Assembly: GCA_902773295.1 (NCBI GenBank)
Contig: CACYDT010000106.1
Location: 4,028 to 68,027, forward strand
Direction of reading: 5' to 3'
Source of the DNA: an uncultured Veillonellaceae bacterium
GTDB lineage: Bacteria > Bacillota > Negativicutes > Selenomonadales > Selenomonadaceae
Length of the DNA: 64,000 bases
Part shown: positions 36,108 to 60,932 of the stretch, in pieces
Position numbering within the stretch: position 1 is the first letter of the stretch
Layout of the letters: the number at the start of each line of letters is the position of its first letter
The notes under the pieces: generated by a model
What the model was told of the DNA's origin: nothing
Seen by the model: only the letters and a program-made list of their open reading frames with translations
Database searches by the model: none
Translations under genes and position numbers: made by a program

Positions 36108-36110
36108 GGC

Positions 36111-42237: not shown

Positions 42238-42282
42238 TAGAGCGTTTTTTCCTCTGGCAAAATCTGTGCAGCTGCGTTATAC

Positions 42283-42461
42283 TATAAGCATGACAGTGGG
42301 AAGCCCGGGAGCGATCCCGGGCTTGCTTTATCCGATGCTGACGGGATTGTACTCTCACCCTTCGGGCGGGAGACCAGCCCCTATAAAGCAGTGGGTAAAT
42401 TCAGTAGGGCTCTGGAACTCCCGCTGAATGAGTCTCATTTTATTTTTTTGCGAAAGAGGGA
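42283..42461 (+). promoter_or_regulatory. Structured leader or intergenic region upstream of the ABC importer (class unknown)
   Basis: 10-bp hairpin aagcccggga-GCGA-tcccgggctt (42300-42323). A long hairpin gcgggagaccagccc...gggctctggaactcccgc competes with an alternative tctcaccc-ttcg-gggcgggaga pairing. Confidence 0.3.
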
Positions 42462-43253: not shown

Positions 43254-43273
43254 GGCTCCGCAGAGCGTATCGG

Positions 43274-43304
43274 ATACCGCGTCCCGGTGGGGCGCGGTAT
43301 TTTC
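43274..43304 (+). terminator. Intra-operon intrinsic terminator or attenuator after the binding-protein gene
   Basis: ataccgcg / cgcggtat stem with an 11-nt loop, followed by tttt. Confidence 0.6.
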
Positions 43305-43366
43305 TTATGGAAAAATCGGAACAAGAGTGATAAAATAAAAAAGTATTTAAATTTTGGAAGAACAGG

Positions 43367-44041
43367 GTGAAGTTCGTGGAGTTCAATTTCGATTTAATCA
43401 TCAATTCTTTTCCCCTGCTCCTTTTGGGGGCAGGGGTCACGGTCAAGATTACGCTGATGTCGGTGGCGGTGGGCGTTGTCATCGGGCTTTTCGTGGGAAT
43501 CGCCCGCATATCCTCCTTCCGCCTCCTCCGTTTTTTGGCGGCAGTCTATGTGGATTTCTTTCGCGGGACACCGCTTTTGGTGCAGATTTTCCTCATTTAT
43601 TTTGCAATTCCCGTGATTACGGGACAGCGCATGGATCCCTTTGTGGCGGCGATTTCTGCCTGCGGCATCAACAGCGGTGCCTATGTGGCGGAGATTTTCC
43701 GGGCGGGCATCCAGTCCATTGATGCGGGGCAGATGGAGGCGGGGCGTTCCCTGGGCATGACATGGATGCAGACCATGCGCTATATCATTGTGCCCCAGGC
43801 CTTCAAGCGGGTCATTCCGCCACTGGGCAATGAATTCATTGCTCTTTTGAAGGATTCTTCTCTGGTGTCGGTCATCGGCTTCGAGGAGCTGACTCGCCGG
43901 GGGCAGCTCATCATTGCCCGCACTTACGGTTCCCTGGAAATCTGGTTCAGCGTGGCGATCATCTATCTGGTGATGACGCTTTCGATTTCCCGGTTCGTTG
44001 CATATTTGGAAAAGAGGTTCAAAACGGATGATAAACATTGA
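43367..44041 (+). CDS. Amino-acid ABC transporter permease (HisM/GlnP type)
   Basis: GTG start. ...[16 protein letters not shown]...EAGRSLGM...IPQA....P.L.N.FI.LLKDSSL.S.IG is the EAA loop family. Confidence 0.85.
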
Positions 44042-44747
44042 GAATTTGCACAAGTCCTTCGGGGAGGCGCATATCCTCAAGGGCATCGACCTCCATATCG
44101 CGGCGCAGGAGGTCGTGGTCATCATCGGCCCCTCCGGTTCCGGCAAGAGCACCCTTCTTCGGTGCATGAACTACCTGGAAGAGCCTACCAAGGGAAAGAT
44201 TACGGTGGACGGCATTGAGCTTTCCGGCGAGGCGAACATCAACAAGGTCCGCACAGAGGTCGGCATGGTGTTCCAGCGGTTCAACCTTTTTCCTCATATG
44301 ACGGTGCTGGACAATATCACCTTGGCTCCCCAAAAGGTTCGCAGGATGCCAAAGGGGGAGGCGGAGACCCTTGCCCGTGAGCTTCTGGGGAAGGTGGGAC
44401 TGGCAGACAAGGCGGATGCTTTTCCGGAACAGCTTTCCGGCGGGCAGCAGCAGCGGGTTGCCATTGCCCGGGCGCTTGCCATGCGCCCAAAGGTCATGCT
44501 CTTCGACGAGCCGACATCGGCACTGGATCCGGAGATGGTAGGGGAGGTGCTGGATGTCATGCGGAGCCTTGCGAAATCCGGCATGACCATGGTGGTGGTG
44601 ACCCATGAGATGGGTTTTGCCAGGGAAGTGGGCGACCGCCTGCTCTTTGTGGACGAGGGACGCATCGTGGAGCAGGGGGATCCCCGGGAGGTTTTCGAGC
44701 ATCCAAAAGAGGAGCGGACGAAATTGTTCCTGTCGAAGGTGCTGTAG
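44028..44747 (+). CDS. Amino-acid ABC transporter ATP-binding protein (GlnQ type)
   Basis: Walker [10 protein letters not shown], signature [15 protein letters not shown], Walker [12 protein letters not shown]. The start at 44028 lies inside listed ORF 43998. Confidence 0.9.
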
Positions 44748-44803: not shown

Positions 44804-46876
44804 ATGGAAATGAGGTATCCGGCAGGGAATCCAAGGGGAAAGGAACTGTTTTCCGCATTGGAGGAACGGATGCAAAAAGAGCAGTATGATGATGAGTTCC
44901 TTTTGCTCCTGATAGAATATCGGGAGATGTACCCGGAATCGGAGCATTTTGATATTTTTTACGGGAGATACGCATTTTTCTACGGGAATTACGAGGTGGC
45001 CCTGGAGCATGTATGGGCGGCATACCAAAAAAGAAAAACATGTTTTGAAACATGGAAGCTTCTTGTGGCGTGTTATCTGGCCTTAGGGGAAGTCGAAAAA
45101 TCTATTCCGTTTCAGGGTTATCTTAGCAAATTCACAGAGGAGACAATCCGTATATCGCTTCCACCAAATAAAATCCCGCAGGCATTGGGAGAACTGAGCG
45201 TTATGAAGGGATACGCGGTTTATGCGCCCTTGTGCAGGAAAAAATGCTTTTTGGAGGAAGGGCAGTTCAAAGTAGAGGAAGGCGTTTTTGCAGGTGAAAT
45301 GATACCGTTTTCAATGGATGATGACGGATACGGCTATTGGGTCGGGGCATTCAATGAAGCAGGTTCCATCGGAGGACATGGGAAGCTGTTGCAGGAAGTC
45401 GCCGGGAAGGATGCGTTCATGCAATCTGCCGGTGCGGATGTTGTATATGATATCATGCGTGCCAGGAAAGAAACAGAGTTCTTTGTGGATCCCCGGGACA
45501 GTGAGGTGATTCTTCCTGTTGCCGGAGCCATTGACAATCAGATGGTGAACTTTCAAGGGAACGGCATAGAAGGTAGTGCTGTGACGGGGCAGTGGGAATA
45601 CGATTTTTTCCGCGTAGACCGCCCTGTCCGCGTATCTTCAAAATATCCGTTGCTTTTGGGCAAGCCTGTTCGATTGAGACACAATGAGGCACGGAGAAAA
45701 ATTGTATTGAATATCCTGGTAGATGCTCTTAGCTGGCCGTTGGTTTGTCCGCAGTCGTTTCAGTACATGCCGCATATGATGGAATTCTTTTCCGAAGGGG
45801 TGGTGTTTGGACAACATTTTTCTGCAGTCGAATACACGTATCCAGCCTTGGCATCTATTGAGACGGGGATGTATCCGCATCACTCCCAGATTTATCACGA
45901 TGGTTTGGTGATACCACTCGATAAAGAATACGTGACGCTGTCGGAACAGATGAAAAATTTGGGATATTATAGTGTGAGCGTCATGAACGCAGGGGGAGGA
46001 TTATACAATGGCGTGACACGAGGATACGATAGGTTGCTGGTCGGAGCCTATGATTTGCCGGCTTATTCGGCTGTGGAAAGAACCATCCGTCATTTGGAGG
46101 CATTTTCGGAATGCGATCAGTTTCTTTTTCTGCATATTCTGGAATTGCATCCATGGTCATCCAAATCAAATCATTTGGATATGGGAGTGCAGACAAAGCT
46201 TTGCTTGCAGGATAGAATGAACGGGAAGGAAGAGCCCAAGCCGAGTATTTATCTTCCCGGTTCCAACCTTTACCAAAGCGCCTATCAGCAGGCCATGGCA
46301 CGCATCGATCGAAGTTTGGGAGTGCTGTTCGATTATATCACAAGCCATTATGATGAGGATGAATATATTGTGCAACTGTATTCCGATCATGGAGCCACCG
46401 TCTATGATGATGTGCCGCAGCTCGTGGGCGACAGCCAGACCCATACCGCCTATATGCTGCGAGGATATGGTGTTCCGAGGAAAGGCATCGTGGATGAACT
46501 GACGAGCGCTGTCGATATTTATCCGGTTCTGGGGAAACTGGCAGGGTTCCCGGTAGGTTCCTGGGTAGACGGAAACCTGCCGGCGGTGTTTGGCGGAGAA
46601 GAGCGGACATGCGTGTACAGCAACTCCCGGTATCCCGGACAGACCTATAAGCTGTGCATTCGGACGAAGACCCATGAATTTTATATGGAGTCCCTTGATC
46701 CTGTGCATGAAGATGGAACGGTGGATCTTTCGGGGGCGGCGGCATCTGTCTATTCCAGGGACGGATCCCATCGTTTGGTTGAGGATCCTGTCTTGGCCGA
46801 TGAATTTTTGGAGATGGCCAGGGAATATACCCGCTCTTTCAATGATGAGGGACGACATTGGCATTCCTATCGATGA
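44804..46876 (+). CDS. Cytoplasmic sulfatase-fold (alkaline phosphatase superfamily) protein with Thr at the nucleophile position, paralog 1 of 5
   Basis: LNILVDALSW, EYTYPALASIETGMYPHHS, FLFLHILELHPW, YSDHG, VDIYPVLGKLAGFP. No signal peptide or TM segment visible. N-terminal TPR-like region. GAGGGAGGAG is upstream of the ATG at 44804. Confidence 0.7.
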   Translation: MEMRYPAGNPRGKELFSALEERMQKEQYDDEFLLLLIEYREMYPESEHFDIFYGRYAFFYGNYEVALEHVWAAYQKRKTCFETWKLLVACYLALGEVEKSIPFQGYLSKFTEETIRISLPPNKIPQALGELSVMKGYAVYAPLCRKKCFLEEGQFKVEEGVFAGEMIPFSMDDDGYGYWVGAFNEAGSIGGHGKLLQEVAGKDAFMQSAGADVVYDIMRARKETEFFVDPRDSEVILPVAGAIDNQMVNFQGNGIEGSAVTGQWEYDFFRVDRPVRVSSKYPLLLGKPVRLRHNEARRKIVLNILVDALSWPLVCPQSFQYMPHMMEFFSEGVVFGQHFSAVEYTYPALASIETGMYPHHSQIYHDGLVIPLDKEYVTLSEQMKNLGYYSVSVMNAGGGLYNGVTRGYDRLLVGAYDLPAYSAVERTIRHLEAFSECDQFLFLHILELHPWSSKSNHLDMGVQTKLCLQDRMNGKEEPKPSIYLPGSNLYQSAYQQAMARIDRSLGVLFDYITSHYDEDEYIVQLYSDHGATVYDDVPQLVGDSQTHTAYMLRGYGVPRKGIVDELTSAVDIYPVLGKLAGFPVGSWVDGNLPAVFGGEERTCVYSNSRYPGQTYKLCIRTKTHEFYMESLDPVHEDGTVDLSGAAASVYSRDGSHRLVEDPVLADEFLEMAREYTRSFNDEGRHWHSYR

Positions 46877-46909
46877 AATGGCAATATCATAGAAAGGAAA
46901 GTGCGTGCA

Positions 46910-47641
46910 ATGAAAGCGTTGATTCTTAATTCAGGCGCGGGAGTCAGGCTGCGTCCTTTGACAGAAACACAGCCCAAATGCATGACGAAGATCTCGCCGG
47001 AGGAAACGATACTGGGACGTCATTTGCGTCAATTGGCAGATGTGGGAGTGGAGGAGATTGTCATTACAACAGGACCCTTTGAGAGGGAACTTGTTCAATA
47101 TGCAGAAGCGCATGGAGAGAAACAAAAGGTTACGTTTGTGAAGAATCCGGAATATGACCGAACGAATTATATTTATTCGATTTTCTGCGCTCGGGAATAT
47201 TTGGGGGGAGATATCCTTCTTCTGCATGGGGATTTGGTATTTGCTGATGAGGTTTTGCGCCGTGTGATGGATTTCGATGGGAGCTGCATGGTGACGAGCT
47301 CTGCTGTGCCATTGCCGGAAAAGGATTTCAAGGCCGTTCTTTCGGGAGAATACATCAAGGCCGTAGGCATTGAGTTCTTTGAACATGCCGTTGCTGCCCA
47401 GCCTTTGTATAAATTGCTCCGGAAGGATTGGCAGGCATGGCTGTCCAGGATCGAGATGTTTTGCAGGAACGGCAGGAGAAATTGCTATGCGGAGAATGCA
47501 TTCAACGAAATTTCCAATCAATGCAGGATACATCCGCTAGAGGTCGGGAATCTTTTCTGTCAGGAAGTGGATAGCTTGGAGGATTTGGATCTTGTGGTTT
47601 CCGGATTGAGAACTTTGGATTCGGAGGATTCTGCTATATGA
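46910..47641 (+). CDS. LicC/sugar-phosphate-type nucleotidyltransferase (candidate phosphonate cytidylyltransferase)
   Basis: MKALILNSGAGVRLRPLTETQPKCM is the G-x-G-x-R-L N-terminal NTP-transferase motif. About 243 aa. ATGA coupling to the downstream dehydrogenase. Confidence 0.7.
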   Translation: MKALILNSGAGVRLRPLTETQPKCMTKISPEETILGRHLRQLADVGVEEIVITTGPFERELVQYAEAHGEKQKVTFVKNPEYDRTNYIYSIFCAREYLGGDILLLHGDLVFADEVLRRVMDFDGSCMVTSSAVPLPEKDFKAVLSGEYIKAVGIEFFEHAVAAQPLYKLLRKDWQAWLSRIEMFCRNGRRNCYAENAFNEISNQCRIHPLEVGNLFCQEVDSLEDLDLVVSGLRTLDSEDSAI

Positions 47642-48780
47642 ACGGGAGATGGCCCAAGGTTCTCTCGCCGGGAGATGATTATGCGGATATCGATGCTTAT
47701 CTCCTTGGCAAGGGAGTCCGGAAAATTTTTCTTGTGCATGGGAAATCTGCAAAGAATCTTAGGGTGGGACGTTATTTTTTCGGTCTTCCGGAGCGCATGG
47801 GGATTTCTTTGCGTTCCTTTACGGATTTCTGCCCGAATCCGTCCTTTGAGTCTGTTGTGAACGGGGTGAAGGATTTTCGGGAGCACGGCTGTGACATGGT
47901 CGCAGCTCTTGGCGGTGGGAGCGCCATAGATGTTGCAAAATGCGTTAAGCTGTATGCGGACATGCCTGATGATGCATGTGCTCTTCCACAGAAAATCCGG
48001 CCGAACGACATACCTCTCTTGGCTGTTCCGACTACGGCGGGAACAGGGAGCGAGACCACCCGGTATGCCGTGATTTATTTTGATGGCGAGAAGCAGTCCA
48101 TTTCTCATGAGACATGCATTCCGGAGGCTGTATGCATAGATCCGTCCGTACTGATGACGTTGCCGTTGTATCATCGCGCTTCTTCCATGCTGGATGCTCT
48201 TTGCCATGCCATGGAATCCTGGTGGTCGGTGAACTCCACGGAGGAAAGCCGTCGGTATTCCCGGGATGCCATGAGGCTTATTCTGGCGTGTAGAAAGGAA
48301 TATATGCAGGAGGATTCCCGTGTGTTCGGGCATATGATGCAGGCAGCGCATTTGGCAGGGAAGGCTATCGATATCACACAGACGACGGCGGGGCATGCGA
48401 TGTGCTATAAGCTGACCGGTCGTTACGGGATTGCCCATGGCCATGCGGCTGCTCTCTGCGATGCGGCACTCTGGCCATATATGATGGAACATCTGGAGGA
48501 TTGCTGCGATGTGCGCGGAAAGAACTGGCTGGCAGGAATTTTTGGGGAAATGGCCGAAACGATGGGGTGCGGTGATGTGCGGGAAGCGGCAGCGGTTTTG
48601 CCGAAATTTCTGAAGGAACTTGGCATGGAGAAACCTTCCGGCACGGAGGAGGATCTGGACTTTCTGGCAGCTTCCGTGAATCCCGTGCGTCTGAAGAACC
48701 ATCCCGTCCGAATGAGCAGGGAGGCGTTTCGGTACCTATATGACGAGATCGTATGGATACATAGGCCGATGGAGGAATGA
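47638..48780 (+). CDS. Iron-containing (group III) alcohol dehydrogenase, candidate phosphonoacetaldehyde reductase
   Basis: GGGSAIDVAKCVK, TTAGTGSE and His-rich metal motifs (H..CH..E, GIAHGHA). Functional assignment is from context with pepM and ppd. Confidence 0.7.
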   Translation: MNGRWPKVLSPGDDYADIDAYLLGKGVRKIFLVHGKSAKNLRVGRYFFGLPERMGISLRSFTDFCPNPSFESVVNGVKDFREHGCDMVAALGGGSAIDVAKCVKLYADMPDDACALPQKIRPNDIPLLAVPTTAGTGSETTRYAVIYFDGEKQSISHETCIPEAVCIDPSVLMTLPLYHRASSMLDALCHAMESWWSVNSTEESRRYSRDAMRLILACRKEYMQEDSRVFGHMMQAAHLAGKAIDITQTTAGHAMCYKLTGRYGIAHGHAAALCDAALWPYMMEHLEDCCDVRGKNWLAGIFGEMAETMGCGDVREAAAVLPKFLKELGMEKPSGTEEDLDFLAASVNPVRLKNHPVRMSREAFRYLYDEIVWIHRPMEE

Positions 48781-48804
48781 TAGGAGAAGGGGGGAGGCTT
48801 GGGG

Positions 48805-50925
48805 ATGAGATATCCGGAGGGAGATCCGAGGGGAAAGGAATTATTTTCGGCACTGGAGGAAAGGGCAGAACAGGGGATGTATGATGATGCGTACTTGTGG
48901 ATGCTCATCGAATACCAGAGCCTGTATCCGGAATCCGAGCATTTTGATATATTTTATGCGAAATATGCCATGTTTCATAAAAATTACGGAGTGGCATTGG
49001 AGCATGCGGGAAAGGCATTCGGGAAACGAAGGATCAGCTTGGAGGTATGGAGGCTTTTCGCTGATTCTTGTATCGCATTGGGCAGGCCGGAAGAAGCGCT
49101 TCCTTTTCAGGGCTACTGCTGCAATTTTTACAGGCAGCCATTGGAGATATCTATGCCGGAGGCGTTGCTCAAAAAGAACTTGGGGAGACTGAGTCTGGCC
49201 ATGGGGCGTGGGAATTGCGCACCTCTTTGTGAATGCAAGATGTCTTATGATGGTGGGGAAATGAGTTCGTCCAAGACTGTGTTCGGCGCGGAATTCCTTC
49301 CCGTGGGCGCAGATGAGGAAGGGTATTCGTATTGGGTTGGCGTATACAATGAATCTGCAGGAATTGGAACCAGGGGAAAGCATTTGGAACGGGAAATGAA
49401 GTCGGGAACGGCAGGTTTCTTCGAGGGCGATGATGTTGTGTACGATATTATGCGTTCCAAGATTGCGAGGGAGGTGCTCGTTGAGCCGAAGGGAAGCCCT
49501 GTTGCGCTTCCAATCGCGGCAGCGACGGCCGCTGCAGAGAAGCAGCGTGTGGATTTTTCGTCGGGAGGAGAGACAGAATGCGGATGCCTGGGGCAATGGG
49601 AGTACAGCTTTTTCCGTGTGGAAAAGCCGACCAGGATTTCCTCGGAATATCCCTTGGTCTTTGGAAGACCGATTCCCTTGCAGCATAATTCCAAACGGAA
49701 GCGGTTGGTTCTCAATATCCTGGTGGATGCTTTGAGCTGGCATATGTTTCGCAGGGAGAGGTTCCGCTATATGCCCAATATGATGGACTTTTTCTCCAAG
49801 GGAATCATTTTCGACCAACAGTTTTCTGTTTCGGAGTATACGTATCCATCGTTGCCGTCTATTGAGACGGGACTGTATCCTCATCATTCCCAAATTTTCA
49901 GTGAGCGGGCGGCCATAGAGATCGACAGGAAGCATCTCACGATTTCGGAGCAGATGAAGGGGCTCGGCTATTACTGCACCAACCTCATGGGAGGAGGGCA
50001 TGCGATATACAACGGCGCAACGAGGGGCTATGACAGGCTGGTTACGAATTTCTGCGATTTGTCGGCGTATGCCGGCACTGAAAGGGCGATTCGTCAGATG
50101 GAAGCCTTTTCAGAATGTGACCAGTTTATTTTTTTGCATTTCATGGAAGTCCACCCCTGGCCTGCGGGGAGCATTCCCTACCCGTTGGAGACACAGGTGC
50201 ATCTTCCTTTGCGGGAGCGGTTGGCCAGAGCCGGCGTTGGGAATGCGAGCGTCCGCCTTCCCGATGCGGCAGTTTACCAGGAGGCAAATCGCCGGGGATT
50301 GGCGCATGTGGACAGCGGCCTGAAAAAATTGTTCGATTACATTACCGCTCATTATGATGAGGACGAATACATCGTTCAGCTGTATTCTGACCATGGAGTT
50401 TCCATTTATGACAAGGTGCCGGATCTTTTGGGAGATAACCAGACGGGGACGGCGTATATGATGAGAGGTACCGGGGTTCCCAAAAAGGGCATGGTGGAGG
50501 AACTGACGAGCACGGTGGATATTTATCCTGTTCTCGGAAAGCTGGCAGGGTTCCGAGGGGACGCTCGTGTGGATGGCAATCTTCCTGCCGTTTTCGGTGG
50601 AACGGAACGAGATCATGTCATAAGCTATTCCCTGTTCCCGGGACAAACTTACAAGCTCCGCATCCGAACGAAAGTGCATGAGTTCTATCTGGAATCTACG
50701 GAGCTTGTCAACGAGGACGGCACGGTGGATTTGTCCGGAGCAGAATTGTCGATTCGTACAAGAGATGGATCTCGCCGGCCGGTGACGGAGCCGGCTGTCA
50801 TGAACCGCTTCCTTGAGCTGGTGAAGGAATACACGAAATCCTTCAACAACGAAGGCCGCCAATGGAGGTCCATGATGGAGTCCAGGCCGGAGTGGTATGG
50901 CAAGGAAAAGAAAGTTTCACATTGA
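48805..50925 (+). CDS. Cytoplasmic Thr-type sulfatase-fold protein, paralog 2 of 5
   Basis: LNILVDALSW, EYTYPSLPSIETGLYPHHS, YSDHG, VDIYPVLGKLAGF. The ATG at 48805 follows AGGAGAAGGGGGGAGG. The listed ORF begins at TTG 48799. Confidence 0.7.
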   Translation: MRYPEGDPRGKELFSALEERAEQGMYDDAYLWMLIEYQSLYPESEHFDIFYAKYAMFHKNYGVALEHAGKAFGKRRISLEVWRLFADSCIALGRPEEALPFQGYCCNFYRQPLEISMPEALLKKNLGRLSLAMGRGNCAPLCECKMSYDGGEMSSSKTVFGAEFLPVGADEEGYSYWVGVYNESAGIGTRGKHLEREMKSGTAGFFEGDDVVYDIMRSKIAREVLVEPKGSPVALPIAAATAAAEKQRVDFSSGGETECGCLGQWEYSFFRVEKPTRISSEYPLVFGRPIPLQHNSKRKRLVLNILVDALSWHMFRRERFRYMPNMMDFFSKGIIFDQQFSVSEYTYPSLPSIETGLYPHHSQIFSERAAIEIDRKHLTISEQMKGLGYYCTNLMGGGHAIYNGATRGYDRLVTNFCDLSAYAGTERAIRQMEAFSECDQFIFLHFMEVHPWPAGSIPYPLETQVHLPLRERLARAGVGNASVRLPDAAVYQEANRRGLAHVDSGLKKLFDYITAHYDEDEYIVQLYSDHGVSIYDKVPDLLGDNQTGTAYMMRGTGVPKKGMVEELTSTVDIYPVLGKLAGFRGDARVDGNLPAVFGGTERDHVISYSLFPGQTYKLRIRTKVHEFYLESTELVNEDGTVDLSGAELSIRTRDGSRRPVTEPAVMNRFLELVKEYTKSFNNEGRQWRSMMESRPEWYGKEKKVSH

Positions 50926-50955
50926 CAAATATGCATTTGTTGAGGAGGGAATGAT

Positions 50956-52998
50956 GTGAAATATCCAGGAGGAAGTGCAGAAGGAAAGAAGCAGTTTCGA
51001 ACATTGGAGGAACGGGCGAAAAAGAATCTTTACGATGATGAGTTTTTGTTGCTTCTCATAGAATATCAACGCATGCATCCTCAATCAGAACATTTTGATA
51101 TTTTTTATGCCCGGTATGCCGCATTTCATGGGAATTACCGGGTGGCATTGGAACATGCAAAAAAAGCCTATGCATGCCGCAAGCAGGACGCAGAAACGTG
51201 GAAACTGCTGGCAGGGATCTACGAAAGGATCGGGGACAAGTATCATGCGGCTTTGTATCTTGGTCTGGTGTCTCTGGACAATGAAAAGACGTTGATGGAT
51301 ATCACCGGTAAGGAAAGTGTGGCAGGGCTGGAGATGGCTCATACGAGTCCTGCCTTGGCGCCCTTTAAGCAGTCTGCGGTCTTTGTCGGGAATGCAATCA
51401 AGTTCCAGGACGGATTGTTTCTGGGGGAGCAGCTTCCTATGGAAGAAAACGGGAAAGAAGGTTACTGGGTCGGGATCTATAATATGGATGGCAGGAGGGA
51501 AGCCAGGACATTTTTATTGGACAGGATCAAGGAGTTCCACCTTCCTATGTCAAACTATTGTGACATGACCTTTGATTGCTTGCGGGCGACACTCAAGAAG
51601 ACGATGGAGGTCTCATTGAAGCAGGAGGAAAAATGTATTCTCCCGCTTTCCGGCACGGAGCATTTTCAGAAGATCAGGATTCAGGAAGAGGGTGGGGCAT
51701 GTCATCATGCAGTTTTGGCAAAATGTGAGACCATGTTTCTCCGGCTGGAAAGCCCTGCGCATATTACATCTGACATTCCTTTTGCAGTAGGAAATCCGGT
51801 GCTTCTGGCGCACAGTCCCGAAAGGAAGAAGGTGGTGCTGAATATTTTAGCGGATGGGCTGAGTTGGGCGGAGCAAAAAAAGGAAGGTTTTGCCAATATC
51901 CCAAACATCCTTCGTTTTTTTGGAAAGGGGATCATTTTCAATCAAAATTTTTCAGAAACAGAGTATACATACCCTTCCTTGGCAGCCATTGAGACAGGGA
52001 TGCGCACGGCGCATTCTCAAATTTTTCATGACGGCCGCTATGTTTCTCTGGAACCTTCCATTCTTACCATCTCTGAGCAAATGGGAAAACTGGGATATTA
52101 TTGCGTCAATGTTCAAGGGAATGGGGAAGGCATTTACAATGGTGTTACCAGAGGGCATGAGCGTGTGCTTGTTAACCATTATCACCATCCGGCCTATGTG
52201 GGGGTTGAGCGGACGATACGTCAGCTCGAAGCATTCTCGGAAACGGATCAGTTCATTTTTCTCCATATGACAGATTCCCATCCATATAATAGCGACATGA
52301 ATATCTTGGAAGATGCACAGACGCATCTGTCCTTGAAAGAGCATTTGCAGAACATAGATCGAAGCACTTCTGTATGTGTTGCTGCGAATCAGCGGAATCA
52401 GTGGGTGAATCGCAAGAGAATACGAAATATGGATCGCCAGCTTGGCAGCTTGTTCCGATACATAGAGGATCATTACAAAGAAAACGAGTATATCGTTCAT
52501 CTGTATTCAGATCATGGGTGCTCCGTTTACAGTGAGCAACCGTGGCTGATGGATGAATACCAAACGTCTTCGGCACTGATGATGCGCGGTGATGGAATAC
52601 CGCATCTTGGTTTTGTCGAGGAACTGACGAGCGTATGGGACATTTATAAAATCGTCGGACATAATTGCCACTATCCGGTGGATGGCACGCATTTGGACGG
52701 GAATCTGCCGGAGGTGCTGGGAGGGAAGAGAAGAGAGTATGTCTGGAGCAATTCCATATATCCGGGACAGACGTATAAGCTCTGCTTGCGGACAGAAACT
52801 CATGAGTTTCGCCTGGAGACAGAGCATCTTACACGGGAAAACGGAACCGTCAAGCTGCATCCGTATCGTACGCGTCTTTTCCTTCGCAATGGGGAGCATA
52901 CGGAGATCCGGGAGGAAGGGACGGAAAAGATGTTTATGAAGTGGATTCTCGAGGATAGGTACCATATCTTTTGCGACGAGTTGCCAAAAGGATCGTGA
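50956..52998 (+). CDS. Cytoplasmic Thr-type sulfatase-fold protein, paralog 3 of 5 (most divergent)
   Basis: GTG start after GAGGAGGGA. LNILADGLSW, EYTYPSLAAIETGMRTAHS, YSDHG, WDIYKIVGHNCHYP. More A/T-rich than the other paralogs by eye. Confidence 0.65.
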   Translation: MKYPGGSAEGKKQFRTLEERAKKNLYDDEFLLLLIEYQRMHPQSEHFDIFYARYAAFHGNYRVALEHAKKAYACRKQDAETWKLLAGIYERIGDKYHAALYLGLVSLDNEKTLMDITGKESVAGLEMAHTSPALAPFKQSAVFVGNAIKFQDGLFLGEQLPMEENGKEGYWVGIYNMDGRREARTFLLDRIKEFHLPMSNYCDMTFDCLRATLKKTMEVSLKQEEKCILPLSGTEHFQKIRIQEEGGACHHAVLAKCETMFLRLESPAHITSDIPFAVGNPVLLAHSPERKKVVLNILADGLSWAEQKKEGFANIPNILRFFGKGIIFNQNFSETEYTYPSLAAIETGMRTAHSQIFHDGRYVSLEPSILTISEQMGKLGYYCVNVQGNGEGIYNGVTRGHERVLVNHYHHPAYVGVERTIRQLEAFSETDQFIFLHMTDSHPYNSDMNILEDAQTHLSLKEHLQNIDRSTSVCVAANQRNQWVNRKRIRNMDRQLGSLFRYIEDHYKENEYIVHLYSDHGCSVYSEQPWLMDEYQTSSALMMRGDGIPHLGFVEELTSVWDIYKIVGHNCHYPVDGTHLDGNLPEVLGGKRREYVWSNSIYPGQTYKLCLRTETHEFRLETEHLTRENGTVKLHPYRTRLFLRNGEHTEIREEGTEKMFMKWILEDRYHIFCDELPKGS

Positions 52999-53041
52999 GA
53001 GAGGAAAGTATGGATTGAGATTTCGTTAGGGAGGAATTTAT

Positions 53042-55141
53042 GTGAGATACCCAGAAGGAAATCCAATGGGACGGGATTTATTCAGGGCATTGGAACAGCG
53101 GGCGGAGAAAAAAGCTTATGATGATGAATTCTTGTTGCTCCTTGTAGAATATCAGCGTATGTATCCGAAATCCGAGCACTTCGATATCTTTTACGGGTGC
53201 TATGCTGCTTTTCACGGGAATTATGGCGTGGCCTTGGAGCATGCACGAAAGGCATATAGGAGACGAAAGGCATGTCGCGAGGTGTGGAAGCTTCTTGCAG
53301 GATGCTATCATGCCTTGGGGGAGCATGAGAAAGCTGTCCCGTTTGAAGGATATCTCAGCAAGTTTTCAGGCGTGCCGGCGTATGTGACGGTTCCCGTGGA
53401 TTATATGCCACAGGCATTAAAGGAACTGAGCCTTACGAAAGGAGAGGCCATGTATGCCCCCTTATGTGTGAGCAAATGTTCTTTGAAGGACGGAAATGTA
53501 GTTGTGCAGGGAGGCATGTTTTGCGGTGAGATGATTCCCTTCTCGTCGGACAGGGAAGGGTATGGCTATTGGGTTGGCGCATACAATGAAGCCGGTTCCA
53601 TTGGTGGTCCGGGAAAGCTGATGCAGAATGTGGGAATGTCGGACGAGGCATTGGAGTCAGGCGCTGCGGATATTGTGTATGATGTTGTTCGTGCGAAAGA
53701 AGCGAAAGAAGCATTTGTGGATCTGCAGGGAGATACGCTTATTGTTCCTGTCGCTGCAACATCCGGGAACCAGGTTGCAGCGTTTCAGGGGCGGGATCTG
53801 GACGATTCTGCTCTCCTTGGGCAATGGGAGTACGATTTTTTTCGTATGGACCGGCCTGCCCGCATATCTTCTGAGTCTCCGCTTGCCTTTGGCAGGCCAA
53901 TCCGATTGGGGCATAGCAATAAACGGAGAAAACTTGTGCTGAATATTTTGGTGGATGCACTTAGTTGGAACGAGTTCCGCAAGCAAGGATTCCGGCATAT
54001 GCCGCGCATGATGAAGTTCTTTTCTGAAGGGGTGGTGTTTGACCAGCATTTTTCGGCGGCAGAATATACGTATCCATCCTTGGCTTCCATCGAAACGGGG
54101 ATGTATCCGTATCATTCCCAGCTTTACCAGGAAGGCGTGGTCGTGCAGCTCGACGAGGAGTATACGACACTGTCGGAGCGCATGAAAGAATTGGGATATT
54201 ATTGCGTCAATATTATGGGGCAAGGGGGAGGGCTGTACAATGGCGTGATGCGTGGGTATGACAGGCTTTTGATCAGTGCCTATGACTTGCCGGCATATGC
54301 AGGCGTGGAACGAGCCATTCGTCATTTAGAGGCATTTTCGGAATGTGACCAGTTCTTGTTCTGCCATTTTCTGGAAGTTCATCCATGGTCATCAAAAGTA
54401 GCTCATGTAGGTATGGGAGTGCAAACGAAGCTTTCCTTGAAGGATAGGATGAACGGAAAGGAAAAGCGTGTGCCGAGTGTGTTCCTTCCCAAATCTCCCT
54501 TGTATCAGATGGCCAACCGACAGGCGATGGAGAATACAGACCGAAGTTTGGGGGTGCTGTTTGACTACATTGCAGAGCATTATGATGAGGATGAGTATAT
54601 CGTACAGCTGTATTCCGATCATGGTGTTTCCGTCTATGATGAAGTCCCGTACATTTTGAGCGACAATGCGACGAGCGCTGCATGGATGCTGCGTGGGCAT
54701 GGTGTTCCGAAAAAAGGGATGGTAGAAGAGCTGACAAGTGCGGTGGACATCTATCCGACTCTTGGAAAATTGGCAGGGTTCCCGACAGGGGACTGGGTGG
54801 ATGGCAATCTTCCAGCGGCATTTGGAGGCAGGGAACGAGAATGTGTATATAGTAATTCCTTATATCCTGGGCAGACATACAAGCTCTGCATTAGGACGAG
54901 GGAACATGAGTTTCGTTTGGAATCCTTGGGCGCTGTGCATGAGGATGGAACGGTGGATCTTTCCGGGGCGGAGCTGACAGTTTGTACACGAGATGCGTCC
55001 CATCGTCCCGTGGAAGATCCGGCAGTCATGAACCGTTTCCTCGAGCTGGCGAAGGAATATACGGAATCCTTCAACAACGAGGGCCGCCAATGGCGTCTCT
55101 TGCCGGAACCGGAGCAGTACGGCAAGGAAAAGAAATTTTGA
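53042..55141 (+). CDS. Cytoplasmic Thr-type sulfatase-fold protein, paralog 4 of 5
   Basis: GTG start after GGGAGGA. LNILVDALSW, EYTYPSLASIETGMYPYHS, YSDHG, VDIYPTLGKLAGFP. Closest to paralog 1 along its whole length. Confidence 0.7.
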   Translation: MRYPEGNPMGRDLFRALEQRAEKKAYDDEFLLLLVEYQRMYPKSEHFDIFYGCYAAFHGNYGVALEHARKAYRRRKACREVWKLLAGCYHALGEHEKAVPFEGYLSKFSGVPAYVTVPVDYMPQALKELSLTKGEAMYAPLCVSKCSLKDGNVVVQGGMFCGEMIPFSSDREGYGYWVGAYNEAGSIGGPGKLMQNVGMSDEALESGAADIVYDVVRAKEAKEAFVDLQGDTLIVPVAATSGNQVAAFQGRDLDDSALLGQWEYDFFRMDRPARISSESPLAFGRPIRLGHSNKRRKLVLNILVDALSWNEFRKQGFRHMPRMMKFFSEGVVFDQHFSAAEYTYPSLASIETGMYPYHSQLYQEGVVVQLDEEYTTLSERMKELGYYCVNIMGQGGGLYNGVMRGYDRLLISAYDLPAYAGVERAIRHLEAFSECDQFLFCHFLEVHPWSSKVAHVGMGVQTKLSLKDRMNGKEKRVPSVFLPKSPLYQMANRQAMENTDRSLGVLFDYIAEHYDEDEYIVQLYSDHGVSVYDEVPYILSDNATSAAWMLRGHGVPKKGMVEELTSAVDIYPTLGKLAGFPTGDWVDGNLPAAFGGRERECVYSNSLYPGQTYKLCIRTREHEFRLESLGAVHEDGTVDLSGAELTVCTRDASHRPVEDPAVMNRFLELAKEYTESFNNEGRQWRLLPEPEQYGKEKKF

Positions 55142-55143
55142 CG

Positions 55144-55172
55144 TTGACAAAATATGCATTTATCGGTATGCT
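55144..55172 (+). promoter_or_regulatory. Partial copy of the csp promoter: TTGACA-N17-TATGCT
   Basis: Identical to 57370-57396 through the -35 box and spacer (ttgacaaaatatgcatttatcggtat), then diverges. Lies upstream of paralog 5. Confidence 0.45.
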
Positions 55173-55255
55173 GCAGAATTCTTAGACAATGAGAGGCAGT
55201 GTTGGAAGTTACGTGAATTGAAGATATGTTTTGCAAGGGCTGAGGGGGGAATGAT

Positions 55256-57367
55256 GTGGAATATCCAGGAGGAAATGCAGAAGGAAAGAAGCAGTTTCAA
55301 ACATTGGAGGATCGGGCGAAAAAGAATCTTTACGATGATGAGTTTTTGCTGCTTCTCATAGAATATCAGCGCATGTATCCTCAATCAGAACATTTCGATA
55401 TTTTTTATGCCCGGTATGCCGCATTCCATGGGAATTACCGGGTGGCATTGGAACATGCAGAAAAGGCTCGCCGGAAGCGCATGGTCAATTTTGAAGTGTG
55501 GAAGCTCTTGATAGAATGCTATACTGCGTTGGGGCAGATAGAAAAAGCAATGATCTTCCAGGGATATTGCTGCAAATTTTATGGAAGAGCAGTGAAAGCG
55601 GTGATGCCCAAGGGGAAATTGCAGGAATGCCTGGACAATCTGACGCTGTCCATGAACTGTGGAAATTACGCGCCTTTCTGCGAGAAGAGAATGTATTTTT
55701 GGAAAATGTCTTTGCGTGAACGAAATGGCATCTGGGGAGGGGAGTATCTTCCGTTACCGCAGGATCAAAATGGTTACTCTTACTGGATCGGCGCGTACAA
55801 TGAATTGAGTATTCGGGGAGGGCGCGGTATGCTCCTGGAAGATGCGAAGAAGCTGGAGCATTTCTTTCAGGCAGCAGGCGGCGATTTTGTCTTTGACATT
55901 ATGCGATCGAAGAGCAGGAAGGAGTGGGTCGTGAAGCCGGGCAAGGCACCTATGATTTTGCCGATTGCAGCGACGGAACAGGCGCAAAACGTGCGATTTC
56001 GCGCAGAAGGGCTGGAAGATGAGGTGCGCTTGGGGCAGTGGGAATACAATTTCTTTCGCATGGACAGGGAGACCAGGGTATCCTCTGCATCGGAAGCGCC
56101 TCTGGTATTTGGGCGTCCGATTCCTTTGGGGCATAGCAAGAGGCGCAGGCGCATTGTCTTGCACATCCTGCTGGATGCCTTGAACTGGAACATGCTGAAG
56201 GAGCAAGCATCCCTGTACATGCCTCATACCATGGAGTTTTTTTCCAAAGGGGTGATTTTCCGTCAGCATTTTTCGGTAGGGGAGTATACCTACCCGTCCT
56301 TGCCGACCATCGAGACAGGCATGTATCCCCATCATTCCCAGATTTTCAACGAACGGGCGGCTGTCCAGCTTGCTCCCGAATATATTACGTTGTCGGAACG
56401 CATGAAGGATTTAGGGTATTATTGTGCCTATGTCATGGGGGGAGGGCATGGCATTTACAATGAGACCACGCGGGGATACGATCGCTTGCTGGTCAATTCC
56501 TATGATTTGCCGGCGTATGTTGGCGTGGATCGCGTGATCCGGCAGTTGGAAGGACTTTCCGAGTGCGATCAGTTCCTGCTTTTGCATGTCATGGAAGCGC
56601 ATCCTTGGAGCATCAGGAAATTTCCGGTTTGCTTTGAGACTCAAGTGAAGACTTCCTTGCAAGAAGCACTGTCAAAGGAGCGGGAAGGACTTGCGAGCGT
56701 ATATCTGCCCAATTCGTCGGTTTACCAGGAAGCCAACCGTCAGGGCATGAGGCGCATAGATCGGAATTTGAAGCACCTGTTCGATTTTATTCGGGAGCGG
56801 TATGATGAAGATGAGTACGTTGTACAGCTTTACTCCGATCATGGCAGCCCCATTTATGATGATGCCCCCGGTATTCTAAGCGACGGTCAGACGTGGTCGG
56901 CATATATGGTGAGAGGAGCCGGTGTTCCGAAACGGGGCATGGTGGAAGAACTCACGAGCGCAGTAGACATCTACCCTGTGCTTGGGAAGTTGGCGGGCTT
57001 TCCCGTGGGAGAATGGGTGGATGGCAATCTTCCGGCCGTTTTCGGTGGAACGGAACGCGATCATGTCATAAGTTATTCCATGTTCCCGGGACAGACCTAT
57101 AAGCTCTGCATCCGGACCAAAGTGCATGAGTTCTATCTGGAATCTACGGAGCCTGTCAACGAGGATGGTACGGTAGACCTGTCCGGGGCTGAGCTGTCCG
57201 TTCATACAAGAGATGGGTCTCGCCGGCCGGTGACGGAGCCGGCAGTCATGGACCGCTTCCTCGAGCTGGTGAAGGGATACACGAAATCCTTCAACCACGA
57301 AGGCCGCCAATGGCGATCCATGATAGAGTCCAGGCCGGAGTGGTACGGCAAGGAAAAGAAATTTTGA
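55256..57367 (+). CDS. Cytoplasmic Thr-type sulfatase-fold protein, paralog 5 of 5 (mosaic)
   Basis: GTG start. LHILLDALNW, EYTYPSLPTIETGMYPHHS, YSDHG, VDIYPVLGKLAGFP. The head is near-identical to paralog 3 and the body and tail are like paralog 2. Confidence 0.7.
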   Translation: MEYPGGNAEGKKQFQTLEDRAKKNLYDDEFLLLLIEYQRMYPQSEHFDIFYARYAAFHGNYRVALEHAEKARRKRMVNFEVWKLLIECYTALGQIEKAMIFQGYCCKFYGRAVKAVMPKGKLQECLDNLTLSMNCGNYAPFCEKRMYFWKMSLRERNGIWGGEYLPLPQDQNGYSYWIGAYNELSIRGGRGMLLEDAKKLEHFFQAAGGDFVFDIMRSKSRKEWVVKPGKAPMILPIAATEQAQNVRFRAEGLEDEVRLGQWEYNFFRMDRETRVSSASEAPLVFGRPIPLGHSKRRRRIVLHILLDALNWNMLKEQASLYMPHTMEFFSKGVIFRQHFSVGEYTYPSLPTIETGMYPHHSQIFNERAAVQLAPEYITLSERMKDLGYYCAYVMGGGHGIYNETTRGYDRLLVNSYDLPAYVGVDRVIRQLEGLSECDQFLLLHVMEAHPWSIRKFPVCFETQVKTSLQEALSKEREGLASVYLPNSSVYQEANRQGMRRIDRNLKHLFDFIRERYDEDEYVVQLYSDHGSPIYDDAPGILSDGQTWSAYMVRGAGVPKRGMVEELTSAVDIYPVLGKLAGFPVGEWVDGNLPAVFGGTERDHVISYSMFPGQTYKLCIRTKVHEFYLESTEPVNEDGTVDLSGAELSVHTRDGSRRPVTEPAVMDRFLELVKGYTKSFNHEGRQWRSMIESRPEWYGKEKKF

Positions 57368-57369: not shown

Positions 57370-57398
57370 TTGACAAAATATGCATTTATCGGTATAAT
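57370..57398 (+). promoter_or_regulatory. Consensus sigma-70 promoter TTGACA-N17-TATAAT of the cold-shock gene
   Basis: ttgaca at 57370-57375 and tataat at 57393-57398. Confidence 0.8.
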
Positions 57399-57452
57399 AT
57401 CACTCATGGCTATCCATCGGCCAGGGTTTATTAGATTTAGGGGGAATTTTAC

Positions 57453-57653
57453 ATGGTAGGCAAGGTTAAATGGTTCAGCGCTGAAAAGGGCTATGGATTC
57501 ATTGAAAGGGAAGACGGCGACGATGTGTTCGTTCATTTTTCCGCAATCCAGGATGAGGGCTTCAAGACTCTGACGGAAGGCCAGGGCGTTGAATTTGACA
57601 TCGTGGAAGGTGCCCGTGGTCCGCAGGCGGCGAATGTCGTTAAGACGGCCTGA
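57453..57653 (+). CDS. Cold-shock protein (CspA family)
   Basis: [33 protein letters not shown] contains the RNP1 and RNP2 motifs. 66 aa. Confidence 0.95.
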
Positions 57654-57671
57654 TCTTTATATCGCAATTAT

Positions 57672-57705
57672 CCCGGTCTGCTTGGGCAGGCCGGGTTTTG
57701 TTTTT
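57672..57705 (+). terminator. Intrinsic terminator after csp
   Basis: cccggtctgc ttgg gcaggccggg, followed by ttttgttttt. Confidence 0.85.
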
Positions 57706-57805: not shown

Positions 57806-58348
57806 GTGGCAACATTCACTGTAAGAGGCAAGAACATCGAGATTACTCCTTCGCTTCGGGAGTATGTGGAGAAGCGCGTAGGCAAGATCGAGAAATATTT
57901 CGAGAAGGTTGATGAGATCACCGTGCTCCTGACGGTGTCCAAGGGCCGCCATATCGTGGAGGTTACGGTGCCGGTATCAGGCGGCGTACTGCTTCGTGGC
58001 GAGGAGGCCACGATGGATATGTATACATCGATTGATCTGGTGGTGGAGAAACTGGAACGCCAGATCCGGAAGCAGAAGACGAAACTGGAGCGCCGCTTCC
58101 GCCAGGGCGGCTTCAAGTCCGAGGCGGTGCAGGAAGGCCCCATTCCGACAAAAGACGAGGGAGAAGAGTACACGGTGGTGAAGACGAAGAAGTTCGTGGT
58201 GAAGCCCATGGATACCCAGGAGGCTATCATGCAGATGAACCTCCTGAACCACAATTTCTTCGTGTTCCGGGATTCCTCCACGGAAGCGGTCAATGTGGTC
58301 TACCGTCGCACGGATGGGAACTACGGGTTGATTGAATCAGAGAATTGA
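57806..58348 (+). CDS. hpf: Ribosome hibernation-promoting factor, long form (HPF/YvyD)
   Basis: ATFTVRGKNIEITPSLREYVEKRVGKIEKYF...VEVTV plus the C-terminal dimerisation domain (VVKTKKF.VKPM...EAI.QMNLL.H.FFVF...T..VNV.YRR.DG.YGLIE). A GTG start at 57806 is preferred. An ATG at 57797 is also possible. Confidence 0.9.
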   Translation: MATFTVRGKNIEITPSLREYVEKRVGKIEKYFEKVDEITVLLTVSKGRHIVEVTVPVSGGVLLRGEEATMDMYTSIDLVVEKLERQIRKQKTKLERRFRQGGFKSEAVQEGPIPTKDEGEEYTVVKTKKFVVKPMDTQEAIMQMNLLNHNFFVFRDSSTEAVNVVYRRTDGNYGLIESEN

Positions 58349-58465
58349 CAGAGTGCGGCCATCTTGTGTGTGGAAGGTGGATGCGTGATTGGATGGACGA
58401 TCCTAAGGCTTGCTTCCGGCAAGCCTTATTCTATTCCATCCCATGCAGTACGGGGAGGGGCAGGG

Positions 58466-59623
58466 ATGTTTCAGGTAGCGTTATACGGTACGGGCGAGGG
58501 CGGCATTCTCATGCGGAGAATCATTGAGGAGGCATATAATGAGGTTGCCGGGCGGCATCAGGGGGACAGGATGTCGGTGGCGGCATGGGTGACGGACCGG
58601 GAGGGTTCAAGCTCCGTGATGGACGGATTGGCGGTACTTGATATTGAGAGATTCCGGGCACTCTATTCCAAAGGGCTTTTCCATGGGATCATCCTTCCGC
58701 GAGAGGAGTTCTTTGGCATGGCTCAGCCGATCATCCGGCTTCTTCATAGCGGCGTGGACGTACGGGACATCTATGTGTCAAAGCGGGTGACCACAACAGA
58801 GTTCAAGGAAGGGGAACTGCTTTCCTTTTTTGAGCCATATCTTAGTGCGAAGTACCTGCCCTATCTTGAGTTTCATGTGGCAGACCACTGCAATTTGAGG
58901 TGCAAGGCATGCGAGCATTACTCAGGACTTGTCACCGAGCCGCATGTTCCGGAGTTTTCCTGTTTTGCCAAGGATATGCAGAGGCTTCAATCCTTCATCG
59001 ACGATATTGGCATGATACGGATTTTGGGCGGAGAACCCTTGCTGAATCCGGATATCAATGATTATATGACATTGACAAGAGAACTCTACCCTTATGCTGT
59101 CATTTGCGTGGTGACCAATGGGCTGCGCCTCTTGGAAATGCCGGAGGACTTTTTCCGGACGATGCGGGAGCAAAGGGTGCATGTCCATCTTTCGGCTTAT
59201 CCGCCCATGAGGGAAAGGATTCCTGCCATGGAAGCCAAATTGAGGGAGGAGGGAATTTTGTGCATCACGTCGCCTGTTTCGGAGACTTTTCAGATGAATC
59301 AGAGTCTTGATGCGGCGAAAAACTCTGATTATTTCTACAAATGTTTCCAATCAAGATGCCATAATTTCTATGAGGGAAAGTTGGCGATATGTCCTCTTCC
59401 TTTTATGACGAAGTACTTCAATGCATATTTCAAGCAATGCCTGCCGGAGGATGGGCAGATTGACCTGTATGACGGCTCGTTGACCACGGAAGAACTGAAG
59501 ATTCGCTTGCTTACTCCACTGGAACGCTGTCGGTATTGCCGAAATCCCGTTCCGGTGGAGTGGAAGCAGATTAGGAAACAGAGCGTCCTGTCGGACTGGA
59601 TTGAAGAAGGGAAAAAACAATGA
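58466..59623 (+). CDS. Radical SAM protein with extra C-terminal Cys motifs; function unknown
   Basis: CX3CX2C in HVADHCNLRCKACEHYS. C-terminal Cys residues (CFQSRC...CPLP...CRYC) suggest an auxiliary cluster. An N-terminal domain of about 120 aa (FQVALYGTGEGG). The stop overlaps the pepM start (ATGA). Confidence 0.7.
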   Translation: MFQVALYGTGEGGILMRRIIEEAYNEVAGRHQGDRMSVAAWVTDREGSSSVMDGLAVLDIERFRALYSKGLFHGIILPREEFFGMAQPIIRLLHSGVDVRDIYVSKRVTTTEFKEGELLSFFEPYLSAKYLPYLEFHVADHCNLRCKACEHYSGLVTEPHVPEFSCFAKDMQRLQSFIDDIGMIRILGGEPLLNPDINDYMTLTRELYPYAVICVVTNGLRLLEMPEDFFRTMREQRVHVHLSAYPPMRERIPAMEAKLREEGILCITSPVSETFQMNQSLDAAKNSDYFYKCFQSRCHNFYEGKLAICPLPFMTKYFNAYFKQCLPEDGQIDLYDGSLTTEELKIRLLTPLERCRYCRNPVPVEWKQIRKQSVLSDWIEEGKKQ

Positions 59624-60915: not shown

Positions 60916-60932
60916 AGCGGAGGGTATGGAAT

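Follow-up and report, generated by a model that had tools for sequence, protein, structure and literature searches.

Predicted soluble sulfatase-fold proteins with threonine at the nucleophile position accompany phosphonate and flagellin-modification genes in Selenomonadaceae

Five paralogous genes at a flagellar locus

A 64,000-nucleotide stretch of DNA from an uncultured, Selenomonas-like rumen bacterium of the Selenomonadaceae (contig CACYDT010000106.1, positions 4,028 to 68,027; hereafter the window) carries two flagellin genes, genes of the flagellar filament, some twelve glycosyltransferases (GTs) and five paralogous genes for proteins of the sulfatase fold, termed S1 to S5. All five lie on the + strand and encode proteins of 680-706 amino acids with pairwise identities of 41-67%: S1 (44804-46876), S2 (48805-50925), S3 (50956-52998), S4 (53042-55141) and S5 (55256-57367). 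A first-pass annotation, made from the letters alone, had placed these starts correctly and held that only a nucleotidyltransferase (46901-47641) and an Fe-dependent alcohol dehydrogenase (Fe-ADH, 47638-48780) interrupt the series, which Pfam searches bear out. The cluster is tightly packed, with intergenic gaps of 24-114 nt, and each S start is preceded by a strong Shine-Dalgarno site resembling GAGG or GGAGG. A regular-expression scan for sigma-28-type promoters gave no convincing site.

The catalytic half of the five proteins is better conserved in alignment than the N-terminal half. The most divergent paralog is S3, which is 41-45% identical to the other four and belongs to a separate clade; its catalytic residues are kept. 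Sequence motifs noted by eye at first pass were found again in the alignment, except that S3 deviates in several of them (AKCETMFLR replaces GQWEY.FFR, and GMRTAHS, HPYNS and WDIYKIVGHNCHYP also differ) and S5 reads LHILLDALNW. A neighbor-joining tree built for 76 members of the family makes S1 the sister of S4, joins S2 and S5 each to an ortholog from another record, and puts S3 in a remote clade. Given this placement, the set is not a recent tandem burst and samples at least three old subfamilies.

Fold and active site

The sulfatase fold is established by profile search and by structural comparison. S1-S5 all pass the 25-bit cutoff of the Pfam Sulfatase family (PF00884) with scores of 57.8-82 (E 1e-15 to 6e-23), and each match runs from about position 2 to 300 of the 301-position profile. 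The profile of the NPP type (Phosphodiest, PF01663) aligns over only ~65-80 N-terminal positions of 342 in S1, S2, S4 and S5, and S3 stays below its cutoff. Among NCBIfam models the phosphoric/sulfuric ester hydrolase PehA scores best, although far under its own cutoff. An AlphaFold2 model of S4, built from a 76-sequence alignment (mean pLDDT 93.5, pTM 0.93), consists of a helical repeat (8-132), a beta domain (141-284), an alpha/beta core and a C-terminal subdomain. When this model is compared with the PDB by Foldseek, S1-type sulfatases (the enzyme class, not the paralog), phosphonate monoester hydrolases (PMHs), PbgA/YejM and one unassigned alkaline-phosphatase-superfamily protein are retrieved at E ~1e-15 to 1e-17.

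Active-site residues were mapped through HMMER alignments to solved sulfatases and PMHs, such as 7lha, with the motif S-T-P-S-R, and 4upk, with C-G-P-S-R. In these alignments T345 of S1 (45836-45838) coincides with the sulfatase Cys or Ser that becomes formylglycine, P347 with the motif Pro and L349 with the motif Arg, while D307 and the pair D528-H529 coincide with metal ligands of both enzyme types; E447 and H449 complete the predicted catalytic set. The corresponding threonines are T346 in S2 (49840-49842), T338 in S3 (51967-51969), T343 in S4 (54068-54070) and T345 in S5 (56288-56290). None of the five contains the formylglycine motif C/S-x-P-x-R; all have T-Y-P-x-L instead.

The same constellation is maintained across the family. 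A MAFFT alignment of the 251 relatives with 500 or more amino acids shows no variation at D307, a Thr at position 345 in 247 sequences and a Ser in the other four, and little or no variation at D/E447, H449, D528, H529, G530 and D571. At the sulfatase Arg position, every relative has a hydrophobic or small residue (L, V, I or F). Both the exchange of the nucleophile with loss of the arginine and the Asp and Asp-His metal ligands, which the first-pass annotation had proposed, are thereby confirmed. Its comparison with LtaS, EptA and NPP survives in part: by alignment the S proteins possess the threonine and the acidic and Asp-His metal ligands of the LtaS/EptA type, but none of these three is among their best sequence matches, and the nearest solved relatives by sequence and fold are the S1-type sulfatases and PMHs.

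N-terminal module and localization

In each S protein a three-repeat tetratricopeptide repeat (TPR) and then the beta domain precede the PF00884 core. The TPR, suspected earlier from helical sequence patterns, is recovered through weak Pfam TPR matches and profile matches to consensus TPR proteins. The N-terminal 292 residues, modelled separately at pLDDT 84.8, resemble the three-repeat peptide-binding TPRs of CTPR3, CHIP and SGT in Foldseek comparison (TMt ~0.7). Foldseek gave no confident match for the beta domain, and only the TPR was recognized within this segment. AspH, which also came up as a candidate relative of the N-domain, was rejected since a root-mean-square deviation of ~18 A is not meaningful. 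A comparable architecture is found in FlmG, a cytoplasmic modifying enzyme whose N-terminal TPR has been demonstrated experimentally to be a flagellin-binding module (PMC7591256).

Localization was judged by Kyte-Doolittle hydropathy over 19 residues, a heuristic. The maxima of S1-S5 are 0.86-1.31, compared with 2.2-2.5 for an adjacent lipoprotein and permease, and by this measure the five proteins have neither a transmembrane segment nor a signal peptide, as the first-pass annotation had it. Within the family, 241 of 250 relatives lack any 19-residue stretch above 1.6; the other nine exceed it marginally, at internal positions. The proteins are accordingly read as soluble and presumably cytoplasmic. 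Such a location is unusual for the PF00884 branch only and not for the alkaline phosphatase superfamily as a whole, because the superfamily includes cytoplasmic members with a Ser or Thr nucleophile, namely iPGM, phosphopentomutase and PhnA. From sequence, then, S1-S5 appear to belong to the sulfatase branch as soluble proteins, presumably of the cytoplasm, that use a Thr nucleophile, and not to be formylglycine sulfatases.

A predicted route to CMP-hydroxyethylphosphonate

The two genes embedded in the S cluster and two further downstream make up a phosphonate pathway. The nucleotidyltransferase at 46901-47641 (+; Pfam NTP_transferase and NTP_transf_3) is LicC/PntC-like; among solved structures it comes closest to LicC (1jyk, E 6e-10) and to the Treponema denticola nucleotidyltransferase/aminotransferase (6pd1), and it is predicted to be a cytidylyltransferase for a phospho- or phosphonoheadgroup. 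The Fe-ADH that follows (+; Pfam Fe-ADH) is the predicted phosphonoacetaldehyde reductase making 2-hydroxyethylphosphonate (HEP). Its best NCBIfam match, TIGR03405 (Phn_Fe-ADH), scores 148.7 bits, under the 423.7 cutoff; in two related loci (L001 and L018) the gene is located between those for PEP mutase (PepM) and phosphonopyruvate decarboxylase (Ppd). In the window, PepM is part of a Fom1-like fusion with a cytidylyltransferase (59620-60915, +; Pfam CTP_transf_like and PEP_mutase) that passes TIGR02320 with 406 bits against 319.55, and Ppd (60933-62054, +) passes TIGR03297 with 465.7 bits against 312.5.

Taken together, these genes are predicted to encode a complete route from phosphoenolpyruvate (PEP) through phosphonopyruvate, phosphonoacetaldehyde and HEP to CMP-HEP. 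Fom1 cytidylyltransferase makes CMP-HEP, and PntC makes CMP-AEP from the related 2-aminoethylphosphonate (2-AEP) (PMC6697681). Neither an AEP transaminase nor LicD, TagF or LicA is encoded within the 64 kb. Since the transaminase is missing, the predicted headgroup is HEP rather than 2-AEP, and the window thus holds a route to CMP-HEP with no known transferase to use the product. The fosfomycin enzymes Fom1, Fom2 and FomC offer a parallel, with a cytidylyltransferase-PepM fusion, a Ppd and an Fe-ADH that lead to CMP-HEP (PMC6697681). Unlike the fosfomycin pathway, the window contains no Fom3-like B12 radical SAM enzyme and no epoxidase, and its product is predicted to be conjugated, not released.

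A radical SAM gene directly upstream of pepM (58364-59623, +) is of uncertain membership in the system. The protein shows no anSME, SPASM, Fom3 or B12 match; the gene is absent from all 11 of the genome loci described below and has a homolog in two of the 78 metagenome loci. A role as sulfatase maturase (anSME) was rejected on both grounds. The ~165 N-terminal residues of this reading frame have no family match. Its 5' end as annotated includes a hairpin that resembles a terminator (58404-58428), for which reason the true start is probably later.

Relatives and their loci

A word-index search returned 299 matches to the S family. All named ones are from Selenomonadaceae and bear no annotation beyond 'sulfatase-like hydrolase/transferase'; an exhaustive search gave 254 cluster representatives at E <1e-30. 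Neighborhoods were examined in 11 genome loci (Anaerovibrio, Selenomonas and Centipeda) and 78 metagenome loci, with neighboring genes scored by tblastn from single queries. Counts refer to the 74 loci that span 8 kb or more.

The first-pass annotation had staked its proposal beforehand on homologs keeping to flagellar or phosphonate contexts, and in the survey the family passes that check. Phosphonate genes are present in 47 of the 74 loci, Lic genes in 15 and flagellin in 12; in eight, an S gene stands immediately upstream of flagellin, and phosphonate, Lic or Tar genes of any kind occur in 60. Loci carry from one to seven S copies. In every genome locus with enough flanking sequence, one to six S genes lie between pepM and ppd. 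LicD/TagF homologs are absent from 44 of the 47 phosphonate loci. The genomic linkage with pepM and ppd and with flagellin is tight and established, but the family is not phosphonate-specific: relatives at 44-47% identity are found in CDP-choline (LicA/LicC/LicD) or CDP-ribitol (TarI/TarJ) contexts without pepM.

Several gene orders illustrate this range. Oral species have NTP-CytPepM-methyltransferase-AEP transaminase, then three to six S genes and Ppd, with a transaminase above the TIGR03301 cutoff. Anaerovibrio slackiae shows the order flagellin-GT2-GT2-GT41-TPR-S-NTP-PepM-FeADH-Ppd, and two other loci (L028 and L032) show S-AEPT-PepM-NTP-Ppd-flagellin-GT2-GT2-GT41, AEPT being the AEP transaminase. 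In L018, glycosyltransferases come after NTP-CTP-PepM, Fe-ADH, Ppd and S. At L016, S lies between TarI/TarJ/RPE and LicD/LicC-LicA/EamA with GT2 and GT41 close by and no pepM. L012 corresponds to the species-level locus of L032 minus the AEP cassette, so that S adjoins flagellin and faces LicA-LicC-BCCT. When L012 is compared with L032 (10001-17932), LicA/LicC/BCCT are 93-96% identical and the AEPT-PepM-NTP-Ppd cassette between S and flagellin is present in one and absent in the other, so that the phosphonate pathway is naturally polymorphic here for presence or absence. Fusion proteins also occur among the relatives, with the architectures TPR-GT2-methyltransferase-TPR-S and GT2-TPR-S. The common denominator of the loci is a cytidylyl- or nucleotidyl-activated phospho- or phosphonoheadgroup combined with cytoplasmic glycosylation machinery, often flagellar.

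More distant relatives have housekeeping genes around them or belong to clusters for nucleotide sugars or nonulosonates. A second homology search for distant relatives, made with P0174, returned only 12 matches, in sugar-nucleotide, thiamine pyrophosphate (TPP)-enzyme or housekeeping contexts. At L058 (6529-9466) and L097 (3229-7917), distant S members stand beside a three-domain TPP enzyme, split transketolase subunits and an FkbM methyltransferase, which makes a different sugar-tailoring context. A separate feature of L012 is a SLATT_5 and reverse transcriptase (RVT_1) pair at 4019-5907, which has the look of a retron-type defence module and lies within the flagellin-modification neighborhood.

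Flagellar and glycosylation context of the window

Upstream of the S cluster, a flagellin glycosylation block (23417-41790, +) runs in the order GT2-TPR, GT2, GT41, TPR protein, flagellin 2, two GT9, GT2_5, methyltransferase, GT2, GT41 and GT2-TPR. Flagellin 2 (31302-32618, +) has a Ser/Thr-rich central region and is proposed either to be the acceptor itself or to bear the glycan that is. The second flagellin gene of the window, flagellin 1, is at 2847-4286 (+), and the filament genes (two FlgN, FlgK, FlgL, FliW, FliD and FliS) occupy 14400-22977. The S genes had been placed inside this flagellin-modification island; the flagellin and glycosyltransferase locus is indeed there, but they lie at the edge of its block, beyond an amino-acid ABC transporter operon (42462-44747). 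On the other side, the order is S cluster, a cold-shock protein (csp) gene, hpf, the radical SAM gene, the cytidylyltransferase-PEP mutase fusion, ppd and secA, so that csp, hpf and the radical SAM gene stand between the S cluster and pepM/ppd. In many Firmicutes hpf and secA are adjacent. Here the radical SAM gene, the cytidylyltransferase-pepM fusion and ppd are wedged between them (57818-64000), which suggests an insertion of the phosphonate genes where the flagellar locus ends.

A number of other features can be recorded for this locus. Within 1105-4286, a TibC-like GT9 homolog of protein heptosyltransferases precedes flagellin 1, and together with the two GT9 genes after flagellin 2 it hints at heptose on flagellin. 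Acetolactate synthase large and small subunits (11111-13332) are encoded within the flagellar/glycosylation locus, beside a GT41 gene (9603-11084). Several + strand reading frames of some size (at 42029-42427, 5346-6479 and 7167-9564) have no Pfam match. Between S5 and hpf there is a self-contained csp unit (57370-57695), consisting of a perfect 12/12 sigma-70 promoter (57370-57398), a gene of 67 codons (57454-57654) and a strong terminator (57672-57695); the promoter and terminator simply frame this ordinary cold-shock gene. An Rfam scan of the whole window gave zero matches.

Comparison with known systems

Several PF00884 enzymes with a Thr nucleophile are well-known phosphotransferases. LtaS, EptA (MCR-1), EptC and Neisseria PptA act through a covalent enzyme intermediate. 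The headgroups moved by enzymes of the LtaS/EptA/PptA type are glycerol phosphate, phosphoethanolamine and phosphocholine; EptC modifies a flagellar rod protein and PptA modifies pilin. Like the S proteins, these enzymes belong to the Sulfatase family in Pfam and place a threonine on a metal held by an acidic residue and an Asp-His pair. They differ in their N-terminal membrane domains, extracytoplasmic location and phospholipid donors, whereas the S proteins are soluble, carry a TPR and beta module at the N-terminus, are encoded beside cytidylyltransferases and are closer in sequence to sulfatases and PMHs. With the latter (7lha, 4upk, 2vqr) they share the core, the C-terminal subdomain and the aligned positions of Asp, nucleophile and Asp-His. 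Yet S1-type sulfatases and PMHs are hydrolases, usually secreted, whose formylglycine derives from the Cys or Ser of C/S-x-P-x-R, in contrast to the Thr of the S proteins and the Leu, Val, Ile or Phe that takes the place of the Arg.

In phosphocholine and phosphonate (Pnt) pathways, the predicted role of the S proteins is taken by LicD and TagF, which bring a headgroup from CDP-choline, CMP-AEP or CDP-ribitol to a glycan and share genomic neighbors with the S genes, namely LicA/LicC/PntC and PepM-Ppd-AEPT (PMC6697681). LicD and TagF have unrelated folds and use direct-displacement chemistry. Cytoplasmic, phospho-linked decoration of flagellin O-glycans, as proposed here, is exemplified by the type A cluster of Clostridioides difficile (CD0240-CD0244) and the type b cluster of Pseudomonas aeruginosa, and 2-AEP has been seen on a C. 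difficile flagellin glycan (PMC8861647). Unlike the S loci, both clusters use other enzyme families and contain no sulfatase-fold protein, and C. difficile lacks pepM.

The first-pass statement that no system of this kind has been characterized must be qualified by that C. difficile glycan. A 2022 survey mentions 'multiple sulfatases' in Selenomonas phosphonate clusters without giving a function, and the co-occurrence of sulfatase and phosphonate genes is therefore already on record and not new. Targeted full-text searches found no functional assignment for S-family proteins, no recognition of the Thr-for-formylglycine switch or of the soluble TPR architecture, and no mention of the flagellin adjacency or the wider CDP-choline/CDP-ribitol link. 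Relative to known phosphotransferases of the alkaline phosphatase superfamily, what would be new in the S proteins is their location, their targeting module and, as far as gene neighborhoods indicate, their donor class.

Proposed function and alternatives

Because the S genes are wired into a phosphonate pathway beside flagellin genes, their products may well attach phosphonate to flagellin or its sugars. We tentatively favor, at slightly less than an even chance, the view that S1-S5 are cytoplasmic, metal-dependent transferases that use the threonine to move a phospho- or phosphonoheadgroup from a CMP- or CDP-linked donor to flagellin or its O-glycan. The nucleotide-linked donor is suggested by the adjoining cytidylyltransferase genes, and the mechanism by analogy with the Thr-nucleophile PF00884 transferases LtaS, EptA/EptC and PptA. 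PepM, Ppd and Fe-ADH would make HEP, which the PepM-fused cytidylyltransferase, the LicC/PntC-like enzyme or both would convert to the CMP-phosphonate. The invariant threonine, seated on a metal that Asp307 and Asp528-His529 coordinate, would then attack the phosphonyl phosphorus of CMP-HEP (in relatives, CMP-AEP or CDP-choline may be the donor), CMP would depart, and a covalent Thr-phosphonyl enzyme intermediate would result. The phosphonyl group would be handed to a hydroxyl of flagellin or of its O-glycan before flagellar type III export, with the N-terminal TPR, together with the beta domain, serving as the flagellin-recruiting module that brings in the protein substrate. Drawn from no fewer than three old clades, the paralogs may differ in acceptor position or in donor.

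A broader form of this proposal, which we hold with somewhat more reserve, is that S1-S5 are the founding set of a family of soluble, TPR-guided, Thr-nucleophile sulfatase-fold transferases that act in the cytoplasm with CMP or CDP donors on flagellin or glycan acceptors, and that Selenomonadaceae flagella are phosphonate-decorated in a pattern set by one to seven paralogs. Candidate headgroups across the family are HEP, AEP, phosphocholine and possibly ribitol phosphate or sugar phosphate.

Several findings sit uneasily with a flagellin-directed transferase. The nearest solved relatives are hydrolases, not transferases. In the window, the ABC transporter operon separates the S cluster from the glycosylation block. 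The oral Selenomonas operon places S between pepM and ppd with no flagellin gene within 10 kb, and about 10 of the 74 loci have no phosphonate, Lic, Tar or flagellin gene at all. LicD- or TagF-type transferases accompany some relatives (L016 and L034) and could carry out the transfer themselves. Finally, the survey consists mostly of Selenomonadaceae and includes non-independent metagenome copies.

The operon with no flagellin within 10 kb, whose order in oral Selenomonas and Centipeda is NTP-PepM-MT-AEPT-Sx3-7-Ppd, speaks for the same chemistry on a different acceptor, a non-flagellar surface polymer at the cytoplasmic face such as a precursor of lipopolysaccharide or capsule, a glycoprotein other than flagellin or the headgroup of a lipid. 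An older label of 'Group 4 phosphonolipid' for these clusters (reported in PMC8942020) and the distant relatives in general nucleotide-sugar clusters point the same way. We nevertheless consider it unlikely, as lipid-synthesis genes are absent from the loci, the S proteins have no membrane segments, the TPR is of the peptide-binding type, the window is full of flagellar filament genes, and GT41, GT2-TPR and flagellin are recurrent neighbors, with S next to flagellin in eight loci. Less probable again is a hydrolytic role, in which the proteins would be cytoplasmic phosphodiesterases or pyrophosphatases acting on CMP-phosphonate or CDP-alcohol (FomD-like), trimming or editing the decoration, or salvaging phosphonate esters. 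That all closest solved homologs, PMHs included, are hydrolases, that PehA is the top NCBIfam match, however far below its cutoff, and that some loci already possess LicD or TagF would fit such a role. It would, however, leave 44 of the 47 phosphonate loci without any transferase, and it accords poorly with one to seven diverged copies inside biosynthetic operons, with a protein-binding TPR and with occasional fusion to GT2 and methyltransferase modules; moreover, Thr-nucleophile PF00884 proteins include the genuine transferases LtaS, EptA and PptA.

Public annotation as 'sulfatase-like hydrolase/transferase' or 'arylsulfatase A', and membership in the Pfam Sulfatase family itself, would suggest true formylglycine-dependent sulfatases. 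This is very improbable in view of the missing C/S-x-P-x-R motif, the near-universal Thr with only rare Ser, the hydrophobic residue at the Arg position and the lack of an anSME match in the only radical SAM protein nearby. Inactive pseudo-enzymes or scaffolds are covered by the same low estimate, as the metal and nucleophile residues are strictly conserved.

Implications

Phosphonate synthesis is encoded in ~5% of bacterial genomes, chiefly for cell-surface tailoring, and how the phosphonate, once activated, is joined to a carrier continues to be called enigmatic (PMC6697681, PMC8942020). If the transferase proposal is true, the S family would be the missing 'phosphonyl tailoring' step for a whole family of gene clusters, and hundreds of 'sulfatase-like hydrolase' genes of rumen, gut and oral Selenomonadaceae would need re-annotation. 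It would also provide a testable case of a sulfatase-branch enzyme with threonine in place of formylglycine, and imply that phosphotransferase chemistry of this kind is possible in the cytoplasm with nucleotide donors. For the organisms themselves, a new class of flagellin modification would be predicted, a C-P-bonded and phosphatase-resistant charge that may bear on motility, phage and immune recognition.

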